Source of the DNA: a virus
DNA: 23,871 nucleotides
UHGV virus genome: UHGV-0138833
Direction: 5' to 3' (one strand)
The notes under the pieces were generated by a model. It ran no database searches. It saw nothing but the letters and a program-made list of their open reading frames with translations, and was not told where the DNA came from. Of this stretch, positions 4,275 through 22,453 are shown one piece after another (position 1 is the first letter of the stretch; each line of letters opens with the position of its first letter). The position numbers and the translations under genes were made by a program.

Positions 4275-4575
4275 TGGTTGCCTCCTTTGCCGGGATTTCT
4301 AACTTTTGAGTGGTTGTATCAAATTCAAACAACTTAACCACGTCATCAAACAGGACATAATCACCATCAGGATCTTCAGTCATATCTGCGCCACAATCCT
4401 GACCGCACGAGTCGCAACCATCCATATCAAGCTCGTATCGCTTCAGGTTTGCGATATTTGATAAATTCAGCGCCAGTACAGCCAGGTCATAAACCTCTTC
4501 GGCAGTGACATCGCTGTTCAGTCCCATTTCATGGCGATATATGATTTTTTCTACTCGTTGTTTTGTGATCGTCAT
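4261..4575 (-). CDS. Hypothetical acidic phage protein (start ambiguous: ATG 4575 or ATG 4527)
   Basis: Track start 4599 is a TTG. Acidic C-terminal region with a CDSCGQDCG cysteine cluster. Confidence 0.45.
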   Translation of the reverse strand: MTITKQRVEKIIYRHEMGLNSDVTAEEVYDLAVLALNLSNIANLKRYELDMDGCDSCGQDCGADMTEDPDGDYVLFDDVVKLFEFDTTTQKLEIPAKEATSEQD

Positions 4576-4846
4576 TTTTCTCTTCACTCCGATATACAAG
4601 GATTACCACACCCCCTCTGCTGATTGCGCGAGCTGGATCCCCTGGTTCCATGCCGTCAATTCCGAAGGCTTCGGAAAACGCATTCATTGCCTTCTGGCGT
4701 TCATCCTGCTTACGGCGTTTATTCCATTTTTTCAGGAACAACAGCGACAGCCACCGTCCGCTGCAGAACACGATGTAAAAATAACCAAGGAGCGCCAGGC
4801 CGACATTCAGGGCCGTTTCTATGGTTAGTTGTGAGTCAGTTGCCAT
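4529..4846 (-). CDS. Hypothetical small membrane protein (105 aa, one TM helix)
   Basis: Hydrophobic segment LTIETALNVGLALLGYFYIVFCSG then a basic stretch KKWNKRRK. Overlaps the next gene by up to 47 nt, which lowers confidence. Confidence 0.4.
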   Translation of the reverse strand: MATDSQLTIETALNVGLALLGYFYIVFCSGRWLSLLFLKKWNKRRKQDERQKAMNAFSEAFGIDGMEPGDPARAISRGGVVILVYRSEEKNDDHKTTSRKNHISP

Positions 4847-8889: not shown

Positions 8890-9087
8890 CACTCAACATC
8901 AATAACGGGGAGCTGTTTCGCATAAAACGGCTCCGAAACATCCAAGAACAGTTCTAAAGATATCAGCAGCTATATGATCATTTCAAGACCAAATATTGAT
9001 TCTGCAATTTCGGGACGTTACACTGTCTCTGCACCTTATAAAGCGGGTGCCGGGGGTCGCAGCCCGGAATTGTCAACGGCGATATAT

Positions 9088-9108
9088 GACGCGCCAGCGT
9101 CTTTTTTA
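9088..9108 (+). terminator. Short intrinsic terminator candidate in the leader of the second Rha gene (tR1-like position)
   Basis: Stem GACGC / GCGTC, loop GCCA, followed by TTTTTTA. Confidence 0.35.
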
Positions 9109-9273
9109 TCGTCCGCGCTCACGCACGCCAGAATTATGGTGGGCTGGGCAGGGGAGCCGAAAGGCTCGCCGGTCTCCGTTGACGCCGGTACTGCGAACCC
9201 TGTTCAGTCTGCCACCAGTGAGTTTCGCAGCTCCGGTGGTGGAAGTTTTCCACAGTCAACGGAGGCTGCCATC

Positions 9274-9825
9274 ATGGCTACGATCCCAACCCTCACTCAA
9301 CCTGAAATTGCCATCGTTGATGGTCAGGCTGTTACTTCATCCCTGGCTGTTGCCAACTTCTTCTCCAAGCGTCATGACGATGTACTGAAAAAGATCCGCA
9401 CGCTTGAATGCTCCGCATCATTCACTGCCCGCAATTTTTCGGTGAGTGATTACACCGATTGCACAGGCCGCAAACTACCTTGCTATCAAATCACCCGTGA
9501 TGGCTTCGCGTTCCTTGCTATGGGCTTTACTGGCAAACGTGCAGCCCGGTTCAAAGAGGCATACATCAACGCCTTTAACCTGATGGAGAAGAGTTTATCA
9601 GGTGCCGATGCGTCTGATATGTCAGCTGTCGCACGAAACGCCAGAGGCGTATACCTGCATTTGCGTGAAATCCATCAAATCTGGACAAGCCAGCTTTATC
9701 CAATGCTTAAGGCCGTTGAATCTCCGCTGGCTAGCAAACTGTACGACCGTGTTGGTGATGCTGTTTTTGGCGCTGCACTTGTTGGTTCCAGGCTGAATGG
9801 TTCTGACAAGGAGGTTCGCCCATGA
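9274..9825 (+). CDS. Rha-family phage regulatory protein (about 183 aa)
   Basis: Start taken at MATIPTL (ATG 9274) with GGAGG RBS at 9261-9265. Segment FSKRHDDVLKKIRTL...ARNFSVSDY...YQITRDGFAFLAMGFTGKRAARFKEAYINAFNLME matches the Rha pattern. Confidence 0.65.
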   Translation: MATIPTLTQPEIAIVDGQAVTSSLAVANFFSKRHDDVLKKIRTLECSASFTARNFSVSDYTDCTGRKLPCYQITRDGFAFLAMGFTGKRAARFKEAYINAFNLMEKSLSGADASDMSAVARNARGVYLHLREIHQIWTSQLYPMLKAVESPLASKLYDRVGDAVFGAALVGSRLNGSDKEVRP

Positions 9826-15131: not shown

Positions 15132-15491
15132 ATGCTCATAGATTTGGTTTTACCTTACCCGCCGACGGTGAACACTTACTGGCGACGCCGTGGCAGCACA
15201 TATTTTGTATCAAAAGCCGGGGAGCGTTATCGCCGGGCAGTGGCGCTTATTGTTCGCCAGCAGCGGCTGAAATTAAGCCTGTCCGGAAGGCTGGCGATAA
15301 AGGTGATTGCAGAGCCACCGGATAAGCGCCGTCGTGACCTGGACAATATTCTGAAAGCACCACTGGATGCACTGACACATGCGGGGTTGCTTATCGACGA
15401 CGAGCAGTTTGATGAAATCAATATTGTGCGCGGACTGCCTGTTCCTGGTGGTCGGTTGGGGATAAAAATCACAGAGCTGGAGTGCGCATGA
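15132..15491 (+). CDS. rusA: RusA-family Holliday junction resolvase (119 aa)
   Basis: Close resemblance to E. coli RusA as recalled: LPYPPTVNTYWRRRG..., DKRRRDLDNILKAPLDALTHAGLLIDDEQ, GGRLGIKITELE. Confidence 0.8.
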   Translation: MLIDLVLPYPPTVNTYWRRRGSTYFVSKAGERYRRAVALIVRQQRLKLSLSGRLAIKVIAEPPDKRRRDLDNILKAPLDALTHAGLLIDDEQFDEINIVRGLPVPGGRLGIKITELECA

Positions 15492-16177
15492 ATAACCAGT
15501 ATTTACAGTTTGTTCGTGAGCAACTCATTATCGCCACCGCCGATTTGAGTGGGGCAACAAAAGGTCAGCTTGAAGCCTGGCAGGAGAATGCCATGTTTGA
15601 TACAGGGCGTTACAGACGTAAAAAAATCCGGTACCGCGATAAGGTCACTGGAAAAATGGTAACGCTGGATAATCCACCGATCCCGGGAAAGCAATCGCTG
15701 GCGAAAGGTTCATCAATTGCCCTAGTCAGTCCGGTTGAGTTTTCGACATCATCATGGCGACGCGCCGTTCTGTCTCTTGAAGAGCATCAGAAGGCGTGGG
15801 TACTGTGGGTATACAGTGAAAATCCGAGTTGGGATTATCAGGTGGTCATTGCGAAATGGGCGTGGGATAAGTTTCAGGTGCATTTTGGCACCAGAAAAAT
15901 TACAGGGAAAACGCTTGAGCGTCTGAAGAAATTAATCTGGCTGGCGGCGCAGGATGTCAGGGGGAGGATTACTGGGTGTGACGTCTACCAGCGACAGGAA
16001 CTTGCCAGACTGTGTGGAGTTAAGTCAGACAACTGGAGCCACAATTATGCGCACTACTGGCGTGATATGTGCGACATTTTTAAGAACCTCGACAACGAAT
16101 CTTTGATTTATACCATGAAAACAAGATCGCAACAAAAAGCGACCTTTTCGCGGCGGGTTATTGCAAAAGTCAATTAA
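15488..16177 (+). CDS. Putative late-gene antiterminator (Q-like, about 229 aa)
   Basis: Assignment is positional: directly after rusA with an ATGA overlap and followed within about 70 nt by a terminator-like hairpin (lambda Q-PR'-tR' geometry). No sequence motif was confirmed. Confidence 0.4.
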   Translation: MNNQYLQFVREQLIIATADLSGATKGQLEAWQENAMFDTGRYRRKKIRYRDKVTGKMVTLDNPPIPGKQSLAKGSSIALVSPVEFSTSSWRRAVLSLEEHQKAWVLWVYSENPSWDYQVVIAKWAWDKFQVHFGTRKITGKTLERLKKLIWLAAQDVRGRITGCDVYQRQELARLCGVKSDNWSHNYAHYWRDMCDIFKNLDNESLIYTMKTRSQQKATFSRRVIAKVN

Positions 16178-16241
16178 ATCGCGTACATTTCGTGTAAATC
16201 TGATATTTTGCTGATTTTGTACACGATGGCAAACTAAACAA

Positions 16242-16272
16242 AGCCTGCTGCTGAGCGGGCTATCTTTTGTCG
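16242..16272 (+). terminator. tR'-like intrinsic terminator candidate downstream of the Q-like gene
   Basis: Stem AGCCTGC / GCGGGCT (7 bp including one G-U pair), loop TGCTGA, followed by ATCTTTTGT. Confidence 0.4.
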
Positions 16273-16449
16273 TAAGTTGAGCGAAAGACCATCGATTTTA
16301 CCTTGCTAAAACTATTCTGCTATTGCCGAGTTACCCTTTAGGTAATACACTCATCTTATAAAAGAAAGTGGTTGTTAGCCACATAGGTTAGGATGTGCGC
16401 ATACTTTGTTTGTGTGCTTTTTGTGTTTTATCTGTTAACGGAGGGGAGC

Positions 16450-16677
16450 ATGCCGAAATATCTAACACTTGCCGCTCGCGCGATCCTCTCACCTGAGAAG
16501 ATCATCAAAAAAATTGCAGATATAGCTTCCATGTGTGATGGAAAAGAAGCTAAGCATGAAAGTGACAAGTTTTTCATTGATAGTAATGGTTCGATGGTTT
16601 TGAATCGCAACAACGCTGATGTGCAAAAGGCTTTCGCAGCCAATATTAAGGGATTGAGTACTAAGAAGAAGGGTTAG
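16450..16677 (+). CDS. Hypothetical small soluble protein (75 aa), first gene of an AT-rich two-gene cassette
   Basis: Strong GGAGGGGAG RBS before ATG 16450 (track start 16393 lacks an RBS). AT-rich relative to flanking phage genes (visual estimate). Confidence 0.55.
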   Translation: MPKYLTLAARAILSPEKIIKKIADIASMCDGKEAKHESDKFFIDSNGSMVLNRNNADVQKAFAANIKGLSTKKKG

Positions 16678-16683
16678 TCTTCT

Positions 16684-17481
16684 ATGTGGGCTGCGCTGAT
16701 TGTTATTGTTTTAGTTTGTGGTTATCACTATACCAACTGCCATTTGCCGTCACGATACCGTCAAAGCAAAGCGATCGGTTGGAATGCATACTTTGATGTT
16801 GCACTGAAAGGTGGTGAGTTTCTCATAAGTGGTATTCTTATCGCTGCCTTATTGGTTGTTGTTCTGTACGCTGGAATGTCACTTTGGAACATTCCAGCGT
16901 ACTTGTTTGGTTGGTACGCTCCCTTTACTTTCGCCCATGACTTTCTCAAAATGCAAGTGTTTGGGTTGAGCATGTTCCCTGCTATGTCGATAGCTTTCAC
17001 TATTATTGTAAGTATCGGGAAGGCATCAGAGGCAACCAAAAACCATAAAGACCCACAAAAGCGCAAGGCTATTTTTGAAGAAATTGCGGCTCATAGTGCC
17101 GTGGAAAATATCCTTCTTGAATCAGTTGAGCGTGGATTGTTATTGTTGGTTACACTGAAGTCTCGCAAGGTCTATGTGGGGATGATTGATGAGGCACGTT
17201 TCAATCAGTTAGATACTAACACATTGGTGCTAATCCCTTTTATGTCCGGGTACAGAGATAAAGATACTCTGACTTTTTGTGTTGAGCATAATTATGTGGA
17301 CTACTACCTTAGTCAGGGTATCACATTAACTTCTGAGCCATTGTCAGTTTATCAGTTTAGGCATGTGTTGCCCTTCGATCAGATCGAATCTTTTTCGCTG
17401 TTTAATGTTGAAACATTCGAGACTTTCAAGGCAGGTATTGAAGGGAAGAAGGCCACTGAAGTACAGAATCAAACAAGTTAA
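16684..17481 (+). CDS. Hypothetical membrane protein (265 aa): about three N-terminal TM helices plus a ~150-aa soluble C-terminal domain
   Basis: Hydrophobic segments AALIVIVLVCGY, FLISGILIAALLVVVLYAGMSLW and VFGLSMFPAMSIAFTIIVSIG. No recognisable catalytic motif. Followed by a strong terminator. Confidence 0.6.
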   Translation: MWAALIVIVLVCGYHYTNCHLPSRYRQSKAIGWNAYFDVALKGGEFLISGILIAALLVVVLYAGMSLWNIPAYLFGWYAPFTFAHDFLKMQVFGLSMFPAMSIAFTIIVSIGKASEATKNHKDPQKRKAIFEEIAAHSAVENILLESVERGLLLLVTLKSRKVYVGMIDEARFNQLDTNTLVLIPFMSGYRDKDTLTFCVEHNYVDYYLSQGITLTSEPLSVYQFRHVLPFDQIESFSLFNVETFETFKAGIEGKKATEVQNQTS

Positions 17482-17500
17482 GGTTGTTACCTCATTAATT

Positions 17501-17527
17501 AAACCCGCCATTGAGCGGGTTTTTTGA
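17501..17527 (+). terminator. Strong rho-independent terminator closing the two-gene cassette
   Basis: AAACCCGC-CATTGA-GCGGGTTT followed by TTTTTG. Confidence 0.75.
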
Positions 17528-17643
17528 TGCCCGAAGTGCGGTACATTAAACGCGCTGGTAGTTATTAATATCGGTCTTTCAGCTTGCTGGCTTTTTCGAC
17601 AAGAGTTATTGGTATGTCACGTTAACCAGAAAAGGGAAAAGGC

Positions 17644-17841
17644 ATGCTAAAACAGCAGGATATGACCGAAACTGCCAGAGTGGTGTTTAATGAATTAAGC
17701 GTCACCGAACCGGCGACCGTCGGGGAAATTGCGCATAATACTTACCTTTCACGCGAACGTTGCCAGTTAATACTGACCCAGCTTGTTATGGCGGGTCTGG
17801 CAGATTATCAGTTCGGTTGTTACAGACGCCTTCCTCAGTGA
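17644..17841 (+). CDS. Small putative HTH DNA-binding protein (65 aa) upstream of the methyltransferase
   Basis: Segment ATVGEIAHNTYLSRERCQLILTQLVMAGLA resembles a winged-helix/HTH. Confidence 0.45.
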   Translation: MLKQQDMTETARVVFNELSVTEPATVGEIAHNTYLSRERCQLILTQLVMAGLADYQFGCYRRLPQ

Positions 17842-17939
17842 AGGCTTTTTTATTTGTGGTAATGGGCGGCTGGTGGGTGTTAGCGGCACCTGCCAGCCAT
17901 CTGCTCATGCGTTGGGTTCACAAGCAAACCTCAGGCCCA

Positions 17940-17990: not shown

Positions 17991-19040
17991 ATGCTTAATA
18001 CTGTAAAAATATCCAGTTGTGAGTTAATCAACGCCGACTGCCTGGAATTTATCCGGTCGTTACCCGAAAATTCTGTTGACCTGATAGTTACGGACCCGCC
18101 GTACTTTAAAGTGAAGCCTGAGGGCTGGGATAACCAGTGGAAGGGCGACGATGATTACCTGAAGTGGCTGGACCAGTGTCTGGCGCAGTTCTGGCGGGTG
18201 CTGAAACCTGCCGGAAGTCTTTACCTGTTCTGTGGTCATCGCCTGGCATCTGATATCGAAATCATGATGCGTGAACGCTTCAGTGTGCTGAACCATATTA
18301 TCTGGGCGAAGCCGTCCGGACGCTGGAACGGATGCAACAAGGAAAGCCTGCGGGCGTATTTCCCCGCCACAGAGCGCATTCTGTTCGCGGAACATTATCA
18401 GGGGCCGTATCGTCCGAAAGATGCCGGGTATGAGGCGAAGGGCAGGGCACTGAAACAGCATGTGATGGCCCCGCTGATTGCTTACTTTCGTGATGCGCGC
18501 GCTGCCCTGGGGATAACGGCAAAACAGATTGCAGATGCCACAGGAAAGAAAAACATGGTGCCGCACTGGTTCAGTGCCAGTCAGTGGCAGCTACCGAACG
18601 AAAGCGATTATCTGAAATTACAGTCGCTGTTTGCCCGGGTGGCAGAAGAGAAACATCAGCGCGGGGAACTGGAAAAGCCACACCACCAGCTGGTCAGCAC
18701 ATACAGTGAGCTGAACCGGCAGTATATGGAACTGCTGAGTGAATATAAAAATTTGCGGCGGTATTTCGGTGTGACGGTGCAGGTGCCGTACACCGATGTG
18801 TGGACGTATAAACCGGTGCAGTACTATCCCGGGAAACATCCGTGCGAAAAACCGGCAGAAATGCTGCAGCAGATAATCAGCGCAAGTAGTCGTCCTGGTG
18901 ATCTGGTTGCGGATTTTTTCATGGGGTCGGGTTCAACGGTAAAAGCGGCGATGGCACTGGGGCGTCGTGCGATTGGTGTTGAGCTGGAGACCGGACGTTT
19001 TGAGCAGACAGTCAGGGAAGTTCAGGATTTAATCGTTTGA
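17991..19040 (+). CDS. DNA amino-methyltransferase (probable N6-adenine, beta-class motif order; 349 aa)
   Basis: Catalytic motif IV DPPY (VTDPPYF) near the N-terminus and AdoMet motif I FFMGSGST near the C-terminus. No adjacent restriction endonuclease, so apparently orphan. Confidence 0.8.
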   Translation: MLNTVKISSCELINADCLEFIRSLPENSVDLIVTDPPYFKVKPEGWDNQWKGDDDYLKWLDQCLAQFWRVLKPAGSLYLFCGHRLASDIEIMMRERFSVLNHIIWAKPSGRWNGCNKESLRAYFPATERILFAEHYQGPYRPKDAGYEAKGRALKQHVMAPLIAYFRDARAALGITAKQIADATGKKNMVPHWFSASQWQLPNESDYLKLQSLFARVAEEKHQRGELEKPHHQLVSTYSELNRQYMELLSEYKNLRRYFGVTVQVPYTDVWTYKPVQYYPGKHPCEKPAEMLQQIISASSRPGDLVADFFMGSGSTVKAAMALGRRAIGVELETGRFEQTVREVQDLIV

Positions 19041-19089: not shown

Positions 19090-19165
19090 GGCCCTTTAGC
19101 TCAGTGGTGAGAGCGAGCGACTCATAATCGCCAGGTCGCTGGTTCAAATCCAGCAAGGGCCACCA
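19090..19165 (+). tRNA. tRNA with anticodon CAU (Ile2-like, ileX/ileZ type; Met not excluded)
   Basis: Manual cloverleaf: acceptor GGCCCTT/AAGGGCC, D-arm GCTC..GAGC, anticodon loop CTCATAA, T-arm GCTGG-TTCAAAT-CCAGC, encoded CCA. Resembles E. coli ileX as recalled. Confidence 0.8.
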
Positions 19166-19172
19166 TCACATA

Positions 19173-19249
19173 CCGCCATTAGCTCATCAGGAAAGAGCGC
19201 CAGCCTTCGAAGCTGGCTGCGCGGGGTTCAAGTCCCCGATGGCGGTCCA
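19173..19249 (+). tRNA. tRNA-Arg (anticodon UCG)
   Basis: Manual cloverleaf: acceptor CCGCCAT/ATGGCGG, anticodon stem CCAGC/GCTGG with loop CTTCGAA, T-arm CGGGG-TTCAAGT-CCCCG, encoded CCA. Confidence 0.75.
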
Positions 19250-19262
19250 TTATCTGCATCAT

Positions 19263-19339
19263 GCGTTGTTAGCTCAGCCGGACAGAGCAATTGCCTTCTA
19301 AGCAATCGGTCACTGGTTCGAATCCAGTACAGCGCGCCA
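19263..19339 (+). tRNA. tRNA-Arg (anticodon UCU)
   Basis: Manual cloverleaf: acceptor GCGTTGT/ACAGCGC (one G-U pair), anticodon stem ATTGC/GCAAT with loop CTTCTAA, T-arm ACTGG-TTCGAAT-CCAGT, G73, encoded CCA. Confidence 0.8.
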
Positions 19340-19803: not shown

Positions 19804-20195
19804 ATACATATCTGGATTATCACCGGTTACGGTAAAAAGTGATTGCTTACTGTTTTTGTGAATGGCATTGCAGCAGCCGGATAATGTCAGTGCTGGCTGA
19901 CGGTGTGCTGGTGGCGGGTGTGGTGGTTGCTGCTTTCCCGTTGCTGAAAAAGAAAACGCCAGACTGTTAGCCGGGTATCAGTTAGCGGGAGAAATTTTTA
20001 AATACTTCACAATTCAGGCGGTTGACTGTTGTCTGGTTTGCGGGGAGTTTGTTAAAAGAAACTGGCATGGTGAATCCCCCTGTGCGGAGGGGCAATCAGC
20101 GAGTAGGTATATGGGATAATCGCGGATTCAGGTGCTGGTACTGAATTCACCGGGAGGCACCCGGCACCATGCAATGGCACATAGCGCCACTCTCC

Positions 20196-20231
20196 AGCCC
20201 CTCTCCGGAGGGGCTGTTTATATTGATTTTG
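20196..20231 (+). terminator. Rho-independent terminator ending a GC-rich structured segment
   Basis: AGCCCCTC-TCCG-GAGGGGCT (8-bp stem) followed by GTTTATATTGATTTTG. A sibling hairpin CCCCT-GTGCGG-AGGGG lies at 20077-20092. Confidence 0.65.
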
Positions 20232-20250: not shown

Positions 20251-20586
20251 TTATGGACTTTGTTGTTTTAGCCCATAAGGACATATTTGCAGAGTGCAAC
20301 GGTTATTAAAGCATTCATTCAATACGTTATCTGTATTTGTAGGGCATTCCTGGCTGTTTTTGATTAAATTCCAGAATGTTTTATTGAATGGTACTACGTT
20401 GTAAATGGTTACAGGCAGCACTTTGTTATTGAGCATGATGCCTGTGTGAGTCAGTGTAAATATACTTTCAGGAGGTAAGAAAGCATCCGATTGATACCAG
20501 ATTATTAATTTTATTTTACTCCATATGACTGAAAAAGATATTCCGCATGATGGCTGGATAACTGTATCAATCACAATCCACTTCAT
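20251..20586 (-). CDS. Hypothetical protein (111 aa), very AT-rich, convergent with the preceding plus-strand unit
   Basis: Good AAGGAAA RBS about 5 nt upstream of ATG 20586. Cys-containing; no recognisable domain. Confidence 0.5.
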
Positions 20587-21035: not shown

Positions 21036-21278
21036 TACTACGTCATCGTACTGGCCCGGCATTCCAGGCCATAAAAGACGGTCTGGCAGTGGGACTAAAT
21101 GCACTGACGCTGACGGATATTACCAAAAATGCAACGTATGGCGTTGAGATGGAAAGTCTGGTGCTGGAGATAAATGCACCGGCATCATCATAAAAAGTGA
21201 GCCAGTCAAATGGAAGGTATCGTTAAACTCACCGGTAGTGTCAGTGGGTCGTCTGAGACGCCTGCATGAGTTATCAGA

Positions 21279-21310
21279 GCCATCAGTACTTAACTGGTGG
21301 CTTTTTTATT
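21279..21310 (+). terminator. Rho-independent terminator immediately upstream of the holin gene
   Basis: Stem GCCATCAG / CTGGTGGC (8 bp, one G-U pair), loop TACTTAA, followed by TTTTTTATT. Confidence 0.6.
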
Positions 21311-21342
21311 GTTGTCAGCTTCCGGATAACGGGAGACGGGGT

Positions 21343-21558
21343 ATGTACCAGATGGAAAAAATCACAACAGGTGTGTCATACACCACGTCAGCGGTGGGAA
21401 CGGGCTACTGGTTCCTGCAGTTGCTGGACAGGGTTTCCCCGTCTCAGTGGGCGGCAATAGGCGTGCTGGGGAGTCTGCTGTTTGGGCTGCTGACATATCT
21501 GACTAACCTGTATTTCAAAATCAAAGAGGACCGGCGTAAGGCGGCGCGGGGAGAGTAA
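21343..21558 (+). CDS. Pinholin (phage 21 S-type holin, 71/68 aa) with dual-start motif
   Basis: [10 protein letters not shown]... has two in-frame starts (Met1, Met4). Core ...[51 protein letters not shown] closely matches the S21 pinholin as recalled. GGAG RBS present. Confidence 0.8.
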
Positions 21559-21562
21559 AGTG

Positions 21563-22453
21563 ATGAATAAAAAATATGAACTGGTTGTTAAGGGGATAAA
21601 TAATTACGGGGATAAGGTTACTGTTACTGTGAAGCCGGAAGGTGACGGGCAAGCGTCGCTGTTGTTGCCAGATGTGGCGATTAGTCTTGACCGTACTGAA
21701 GGTGCCACGCTGGAGTTTTACGAAGCTGAGGCGAAAAAGCAGGCGAAGCAGTTTTTCATGGATGTTGCTGCCGGGTTATGTGAAGGGGATGGTCCGTTGC
21801 CGGAAAAGCGCCCCGTAATTTTAGAGGCGCAGGATGTGTTGATAACCTACAAAGGAAAGCTACCGGGAAGAATTACTTGTTCTCTGAAGATGCCGCCGTC
21901 AACACTGCGGTCAGAAAAAGATGATGTTGAATCACGTATTGAAAAACTGGAGAGCTACGTCGTTGAGCTGAATAAGAAATGGTCGATATTGGTGCCTTCT
22001 GGCGATGAAAAGCAGTTTGCTGCGTTTGACGATTATTGTCGGAAAGTGATGAGCAGAAATCTCGCAGAGTGTTTCAGTATTCATAATGATAATTTCAGTG
22101 ACCCGGAATGGGAGTGTAACCGGCCATCCTTTGTTGTATCCGGTGATGCTGGGAAAATAACCATCTCAGAAAATGGGAAAGTAACACCTCCATCGCACCA
22201 GCACAGTGAGGAGCTCATTGAATTTGCCATTGATTACCTGAAGAACAATAAAAAGCAGGGGCTGATGAAGCGCGTTGGCCGTTGCATGGGATATCTGCAG
22301 GTAGCTGCTGAGATTGAAGCGCTGGCCAGTGGTGCTGATAAGGATGCAATTGTGCGGGAGGCTCTTCTTCGTGATTTTAATACTCCACCCTTTAAAAAAG
22401 TGCCGGCTTACTGGCTTCATCCGGGGCTGACTTATCTTAAAGTGCGTATTTAG
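21563..22453 (+). CDS. Hypothetical soluble protein (296 aa) inserted between pinholin and endolysin
   Basis: GGAGAG RBS 7 nt upstream of ATG 21563. No TM segment or recognisable catalytic motif. Lower GC than flanking lysis genes (visual estimate). Confidence 0.6.
   Translation: MNKKYELVVKGINNYGDKVTVTVKPEGDGQASLLLPDVAISLDRTEGATLEFYEAEAKKQAKQFFMDVAAGLCEGDGPLPEKRPVILEAQDVLITYKGKLPGRITCSLKMPPSTLRSEKDDVESRIEKLESYVVELNKKWSILVPSGDEKQFAAFDDYCRKVMSRNLAECFSIHNDNFSDPEWECNRPSFVVSGDAGKITISENGKVTPPSHQHSEELIEFAIDYLKNNKKQGLMKRVGRCMGYLQVAAEIEALASGADKDAIVREALLRDFNTPPFKKVPAYWLHPGLTYLKVRI

Follow-up and report, generated by a model that had tools for sequence, protein, structure and literature searches.

A putative phage 82-type late-gene control unit at the end of the Q gene in a lambdoid E. 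coli prophage

Does the DNA directly behind the Q-like gene of this virus genome hold the switch for its late genes, and, if so, how much of the cargo lying ahead of the lysis genes would that switch govern? We analyzed a 23,871-nt stretch of virus genome UHGV-0138833 (hereafter the window; all features are on its plus strand unless stated). The initial annotation had proposed a promoter/pause/terminator (PR'/qut/tR') unit directly after a gene for a 229-aa protein, with a second terminator guarding the holin gene and with all the intervening cargo expressed at lysis. Sequence elements matching such a unit are indeed present there, in a register conserved among relatives, and we consider it about 85% probable that a lambdoid E. 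coli prophage with a phage 82-type Q antiterminator controls its late genes from this unit.

That the 229-aa protein is a Q-type antiterminator was borne out by homology. Its gene (15488–16177, stop codon at 16175–16177) begins in an overlap with the end of rusA and carries a full-length, intact reading frame. The product matches Pfam family PF06323, which is named for Q of phage 82 and is one of three unrelated Q families (PMC9388147), with an E-value of 1.5e-83 and 280.3 bits (cut-off 25) over positions 1–217 of the 220-position profile. Against phage 82 Q itself, 156 of 229 residues are identical (68%) in a full-length, gapless alignment (E 8e-118). The gene stands last in the early-right operon, where the order runs from a DUF968 gene through rusA and Q to the promoter motif described below, as it does in phage 82 (rus, orf45, Q). 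As judged from its sequence, the protein is a genuine Q-family antiterminator of the phage 82 family, with predicted antitermination activity. A sequence search of the PDB with the 229-aa protein returned no relatives.

The sequence 3' of this gene includes ATTGCAAAAGTCAATTAAATCGCGTACATTTCGTGTAAATCTGATATTTTGCTGATTTTGTACACGATGGCAAACTAAACAAAGCCTGCTGCTGAGCGGGCTATCTTTTGTCG, and the Q stop codon falls inside a sigma-70 promoter, PR' (TTGCAA-17-TACATT). The -35 hexamer TTGCAA (16161–16166) lies within the last Q codons and is invariant in 32 homologous regions; it is followed by the 17-nt spacer AAGTCAATTAAATCGCG (16167–16183) and by the -10 hexamer TACATT (16184–16189), whose register is kept in relatives. 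Transcription is predicted to start at the A of AAATC at 16196, 7 nt past the -10 hexamer and within about 3 nt either way. Such a start puts GC(T) at +15–17 and T at +25, which corresponds to the published numbering of 82 pR', and the Rfam isrJ model starts 3 nt upstream of the homologous base in prophage Gifsy-1. The predicted start lies inside the interval 16178–16240 in which one had been proposed. The unit had been drawn from 16178; the -35 hexamer lies upstream of this coordinate, inside the end of Q.

PR' scores 8/12 against the promoter consensus and is the sole -35/-10 pair reaching at least 8/12 within 16140–16262; a consensus scan set at 9/12 missed it, and the looser scan (at least 8/12) picked it up. 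Extending the pattern into the pause element gives the composite motif TTGCAA-N17-TAnnnT-N11-TGnTATnnT, which the window contains a single time and which none of 100 shuffled versions contains. In the same register, the -10 hexamers of relatives read TATATT, TATGTT, TACGTT or TATACT, and one relative region, otherwise identical, has TATATT where the window has TACATT.

The spacer is of interest as the candidate Q-binding element (QBE), which in these late promoters sits between -35 and -10; a fragment of 82PR' from -31 to +30 is a movable unit with a functional 82 QBE and pause element (PMC4914094). By analogy, Q may bind within the window spacer. Among relatives with 79–100% Q identity the spacer is identical or differs by a single base. 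Compared with phage 82, 3 of the 11 known positions differ, all in the first part, where the QBE should lie. With 32% of residues differing between the window Q and 82 Q, it is uncertain whether either would recognize the site of the other.

A promoter-like site, TTGCCA-16-CAAAAT, lies on the minus strand at 16205–16232, within the leader, and is directed back into Q. The -35 hexamer TTGCAA (16161–16166) reads identically on both strands, and the equivalent spot in phage 434 is annotated as the -35 of the antisense promoter paQ, with a CII site.

How widely is this arrangement shared? We fetched 87 loci encoding relatives of the window Q and aligned their 32 distinct downstream regions; a species-genome scan contributed only 7 loci, and viral-contig scans gave more. 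The 32 regions show little or no variation in TTGCAAAA, in the -10 position, in TAAAT at the start and in the TG.TA of the pause element; the sequence of the tR' hairpin varies freely with its pairing preserved. An exact-pattern scan of viral contigs, a non-random sample, produced at least 120 matches to the motif. A Q82-family gene (48–100% identity) ends exactly at the motif in 59 among the at least 120 matches listed, and at these 59 loci a hairpin with a T-run follows about 30–70 nt past the start. Phage 434, which has a Q82-like gene, shows the same promoter-pause-terminator layout as the window. Closer to the window itself, the stretch from Q to the cassette described below (15400–17600) is 100% identical in 7 complete E. 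coli genomes and 99.5–99.9% identical in 6 more; the stretch from the end of Q to tR' is identical in 11 fetched copies, and the whole region from Q to the holin gene is 99.7% identical in strain AREA_499.

Shortly after the predicted start, the sequence resembles a sigma-dependent pause element (16201–16212), with TG at +6 and +7, a -10-like TATTTT at +9 to +14 and GCT at +15–17. The first two together form an extended -10-like TGaTATTTT (16201–16209, +6 to +14), and behind GCT comes an A/T-rich run and then the T at +25. The TG.TA of this element is invariant in the 32 relatives and is retained beside Q genes of down to 48% identity. In 82 pR', the pause element is -10-like and extended -10, and nearer to consensus than that of lambda; its GCC at +15–17 is needed for pause stability, and pausing occurs at +25/+26, with U at +25 (PMC5001585). 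By this register, promoter-proximal pausing is predicted at +25 (T) and +26 in the window as well (16220–16221), a likeness to 82 pR' drawn from published feature positions and not from an alignment. Most close relatives have GCC at +15–17, where the window has GCT. Mutating +15–17 to A shortens the 82 pause (changes to A are the only ones tested in the literature), and pausing could thus be weaker in the window, with T instead of C at +17.

Overlapping the GC-rich +15–17 segment is a weak leader hairpin, UUGCU...GGCAA, at +13 to +37 (16208–16232). An automatic alignment with MAFFT and RNAalifold gave no consensus for it, so its pairing was counted on a hand-made alignment only: across 37 leaders aligned in this way, 85.9% of cells pair, against 15–60% in slid registers, and between leader types GC is swapped for CG and UGCCA/UGGCA for UGUCA/UGACA. 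The window copy folds at only -3.8 kcal/mol and the copies of relatives are stronger; the C to T change at +17 leaves a G-U pair in the stem. The hairpin is present in most relatives and missing in those with short leaders, such as phage 434. Given this absence, and given that the 82PR' fragment reaching to +30 is functional, the hairpin is probably not needed for Q loading.

A terminator-like hairpin had been noted about 70 nt after the Q stop. The hairpin exists, at a true distance of 64 nt, and forms the terminator tR' (16242–16272), which consists of an 8-bp stem, AGCCUGCU-GCUG-AGCGGGCU, at 16242–16261 (+47 to +66) and the tail ATCTTTTGTCG; the terminator scan gives the tail after the stem as ATCTTTTGTC. 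It folds at -14.2 kcal/mol (z = -2.5 relative to shuffled sequences). Covariation supports the pairing: over the 32 distinct homologous regions, both partners change in 6 of the 8 pairs and pairing is kept in 89.8% of stem cells, whereas control registers slid by 1–3 columns pair in only 27–59%. In phage 434, a terminator is annotated at the corresponding position, behind the Q82-like gene. The T-tract of the window copy is interrupted (A-T-C-TTTT) where relatives have 6–9 uninterrupted T, and the terminator may therefore be leaky.

Taking the start, the pause, Q binding and readthrough by homology with the phage 82 system, we infer the following course of events. Host RNA polymerase with sigma-70 would start near 16196, from the promoter overlapping the end of Q, and would pause about 25 nt downstream as sigma-70 rebinds the -10-like element. 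Without Q, polymerase would resume, stop at tR' and release an RNA of about 70–75 nt (16196–16270). After induction, Q made from the early operon would bind DNA in the promoter spacer and load onto the paused polymerase, rendering it resistant to terminators. Polymerase modified in this way would pass tR' and the further terminators at 17828, 20195 and 21276 to reach the holin gene and the other late genes, and its transcript would carry along the two-gene cassette, the 65-aa gene, the methyltransferase gene, the tRNAs, STnc100 and the DUF1737 gene. The switch could be weakened by the three points in which the window departs from close relatives, namely T at +17, TACATT as the -10 hexamer and the A-T-C-TTTT tail.

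On this account, the unit is an ordinary switch for late genes, of a well-understood kind, in a lambdoid prophage of the phage 82 type. It has in common with phage 82 the Q family, the TTGCAA over the Q stop, an extended -10-like pause element at +6 to +14, a GC-rich +15–17 segment (GCT, against GCC in phage 82), T at +25, a terminator shortly downstream and co-oriented late genes. The authentic phage 82 record extends no further than the end of Q, stop codon included, and its final letters, TTGCAAAACTGGATTAA, imply that the -35 TTGCAA overlaps the Q stop there too. The window differs from phage 82, apart from the spacer positions mentioned above, in the T in place of C at +17, in the interrupted T-tract of its terminator and in having about 5 kb of cargo with three more terminators before the holin gene. 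The phage records that we searched held no annotated late promoter or 82 pR', and a full-text literature search for the conserved promoter sequence returned nothing relevant.

Further parallels are the PR'-6S RNA-tR' unit of lambda and the PR'-StxS-tR'-stx unit of Stx phages, which follow the same logic. There too the late promoter is constitutive, polymerase pauses early in a sigma-dependent manner, lysogens make a short terminated RNA, and readthrough under Q carries cargo together with the lysis genes. The cargo carried in this way includes an Ile/Arg/Arg tRNA trio like that annotated in prophages related to the window. However, lambda Q belongs to PF03589 and the phage 21 family is PF06530, both unrelated to the Q family of the window; the pauses lie at other positions, the leaders differ in sequence, and the window has no toxin genes. 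No new mechanism is revealed here; the modest added value lies in a precise map of the late switch (promoter, pause element, terminator and predicted short RNA) for a common E. coli prophage type whose genome records leave it unannotated, and in the link to the small RNA IsrJ.

This link concerns the short leader RNA itself, predicted from its position and from a sub-threshold Rfam match to comprise about 70–75 nt (16196–16270) and to be made without Q. In a permissive search of 401 nt, the isrJ model (RF01393) matched 16193–16263 over its full length with 21.7 bits (E 0.084), below the gathering score of 37 bits; we accordingly rejected filing the leader as Rfam isrJ and treat it as a positional counterpart. 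Gifsy-1 isrJ (region 4510–4625 of locus L091) scores 100 bits, the Gifsy-1 Q belongs to the Q82 family, the homologous promoter TTGCAA-17-TATATT lies upstream, and the RNA, about 74 nt long with an intrinsic terminator, begins with the same AAATCTGATAT, some 11 nt, as the window leader. An above-threshold isrJ match also follows directly after a Q82-family gene in an Atlantibacter prophage (locus L003, 3706–3785), again with this promoter and pause motif upstream. The body of the RNA, on the other hand, diverges, and the Q gene of Gifsy-1 is separated from the isrJ promoter by an inserted isrK-C4-antirepressor module, whereas the isrK and C4 matches of the window lie in its early region (9031–9219).

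Since IsrJ starts at a Q82-family late promoter/pause motif, Salmonella IsrJ looks like the terminated leader of such a promoter, a description absent from the IsrJ papers that we read. In lysogens, this RNA of about 74 nt is transcribed at a high level in every condition tested, and it is linked to invasion (bioRxiv 10.1101/787010). This abundance offers indirect support for the idea that promoters of the PR' type fire constitutively and terminate early, and by analogy with Gifsy-1 the window late promoter is expected to be constitutive and to yield a short RNA in the lysogen. Tying IsrJ to phage 82-type late promoters would be useful for annotating prophage small RNAs and, with no relatives of the window Q in the PDB, would help in choosing templates for studying the Q82 family. 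A more novel reading, which we regard as doubtful, is that the leader is a diverged IsrJ counterpart acting as a regulatory small RNA in the lysogen, and that its imperfect terminator leaks deliberately to give low constitutive expression of the cassette. On that reading, Rfam isrJ would more generally be the leader of Q82-type late promoters, with a 5' end conserved as a DNA pause signal and not for an RNA function.

The matches in the early region are above threshold for both Rfam families, isrK at 9031–9107 and C4 antisense RNA at 9132–9219, and fall within the 5' part of an ORF (8974–9825) annotated in RefSeq as a Rha-family regulator. As in Gifsy-1, the two matches point to an immunity module of the phage P1 C4/antirepressor type at 9031–9219; the start of the ORF is possibly over-extended.

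Could the locus be mainly a small-RNA gene, with an RNA of about 70–75 nt that acts in trans in the lysogen, in the manner of IsrJ or StxS, and with antitermination as a shared or secondary role? The isrJ match spans exactly the predicted RNA, and above-threshold isrJ sequences occupy the same place in the Atlantibacter prophage and in Gifsy-1, where the RNA is abundant in lysogens and linked to invasion; StxS shows that leader RNAs of this sort can be regulators (PMC7547250), and compensatory changes in relatives preserve the leader hairpin, which Q loading probably does not require. Yet the match falls short of the family threshold, and what is shared is the DNA-level pause element and not the RNA body. 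The leader hairpin of the window is weak, its T-tract is poor as an Hfq-type tail, and a role for the RNA would in any case be compatible with antitermination. We consider a primarily trans-acting RNA unlikely, and retain the phage 82-type late switch as the preferred reading.

The interrupted T-tract that makes a poor Hfq-type tail also belongs to the case for a decayed relic in a defective prophage, in which Q or its site is dead and transcription of the cargo depends entirely on promoters of its own. The C to T change at +17 and the TACATT in place of the TATATT of an otherwise identical relative region point the same way, as do the clear autonomy of STnc100 and of the minus-strand iraM-like gene and the weak promoter-like sites that precede the cassette. 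Against decay stand the intact Q frame, the identity of 15400–17600 and of the stretch from the end of Q to tR' among the copies counted above, the intactness in relatives of the holin, lysozyme, spanin and terminase genes downstream, and the preservation of a G-U pair in the leader hairpin by the C to T change; a relic is thus quite improbable. We give still less credence to the idea that the hairpin merely ends the early operon after Q, with no promoter in between and the late genes driven in some other way. A terminator downstream of Q would indeed stop any early transcript without antitermination, and the match of the promoter to consensus is modest. But the -35, -10 and pause motifs hold a fixed register across 48–100% Q identity while the flanking non-coding DNA diverges, the homologous site in Gifsy-1 starts an observed RNA, and we found no other promoter-like site preceding the holin gene as an alternative driver of the late genes.

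At the far end of the presumed late transcript's cargo section, a strong terminator had been reported immediately upstream of the holin gene, and it is present where it was placed. The element (21276–21314) comprises a 12-bp stem (21276–21304) followed by TTTTTTATTGTTG, with a folding energy of -17 kcal/mol (z = -3.9); the terminator scan gives the tail after the stem as TTTATTGTTG. The holin ATG, at 21343, follows 39 nt after the end of the hairpin. In 24 sequence variants the hairpin keeps this place ahead of a phage 21 S-type holin gene, whatever gene precedes it, and in an alignment of 18 of these 24 variants 5 of the 12 pairs change on both sides. Conserved position and covariation together mark it as a real, conserved terminator-like element. 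We also tried the hairpin as a translational control element, comparable to that upstream of lambda S, and rejected this, as it ends 39 nt before the ATG, leaves the ribosome-binding site untouched and has a T-run behind it.

In the window and in loci L092–L171, each phage 21 S-type holin gene that we examined is preceded, at a distance of about 35–40 nt, by a covarying hairpin with a T-run, and in those loci the 35 nt from the hairpin to the ATG are almost invariant.

The holin gene itself (21343–21558) encodes a class II, phage 21 S-type protein with an M-Y-Q-M start (PF04971, E 2e-32; RefSeq) and is the first lysis gene; the holin, lysozyme and spanin genes all lie downstream on the plus strand. 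The gene after it (21560–22453) encodes 297 aa, of which only the first ~100 match DUF1327/YdfR. Related prophages have a gene of about 114 aa at this position, and the whole 297-aa protein matches phrog_1085, of unknown function.

Between tR' and the holin gene lies a series of cargo units, which bear on the claim of expression at lysis. Directly behind the unit is a two-gene cassette (16450–17481) for proteins of 75 aa and 265 aa (phrog_3630, function unknown), of which the larger looks membrane-embedded by eye; the cassette gave no matches in Pfam and none to PADLOC defence systems. Two weak promoter-like sites lie upstream of it at 16323–16351 and 16376–16405. A 65-aa gene follows, with a terminator-like hairpin at 17828–17845 and then TTTTTTATTT (17644–17855 in all), and after it come a DNA methyltransferase gene (17991–19040; PF01555, PADLOC MTase_II) and three tRNA genes (19090–19339; ARAGORN, Rfam). 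Between the tRNA genes and the holin gene is a self-contained gene for the small RNA STnc100 (20036–20225; RF02076, 132.4 bits), whose terminator is the hairpin at 20195–20216 (-20.3 kcal/mol). An iraM-like anti-adaptor gene (20251–20586; RefSeq annotation of identical DNA) lies on the minus strand, antisense to late transcription, in an AT-rich island with a GC content of 31–35%, and ends 26 nt beyond STnc100. A small TciB-like gene and a DUF1737 gene also belong to the section between tR' and the holin gene.

Two terminator hairpins had been named, and both exist; two more plus-strand hairpins, at 17828–17845 and 20195–20216, stand between them, which makes four in all between the promoter and the holin gene (16242, 17828, 20195 and 21276). 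Terminators thus follow individual cargo units, as they do where inserts are transcribed independently. Read most economically, the holin-proximal and the other internal terminators would shield the lysis genes of the lysogen from transcription that begins at cargo promoters, and Q-modified polymerase would pass them.

Most of the cargo is co-oriented with the late promoter, and from the layout, in which the Q unit is followed by co-oriented cargo with the holin gene downstream, we expect these genes to be co-transcribed with the lysis genes after Q action. The proposal that all the cargo is co-induced with lysis therefore carries over to the co-oriented genes and breaks down at the iraM-like gene, which the late promoter cannot express because it lies on the minus strand. 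The stronger claim, which places cargo expression at lysis and not in the lysogen, fails for the iraM-like gene in the same way and is unlikely to apply to STnc100, which is self-contained and has its own terminator; for the two-gene cassette, with its two weak promoter-like sites, it could go either way. The map thereby separates cargo that would be swept along on induction from cargo that is independent.

The two-gene cassette is low in GC, lies directly after tR' and is linked to the interrupted-T-tract variant of this terminator. In E. coli Eco889, the same tRNA-iraM-DUF1737-holin module stands behind a different antiterminator gene, encoding 273 aa, which indicates mosaic exchange at this position.
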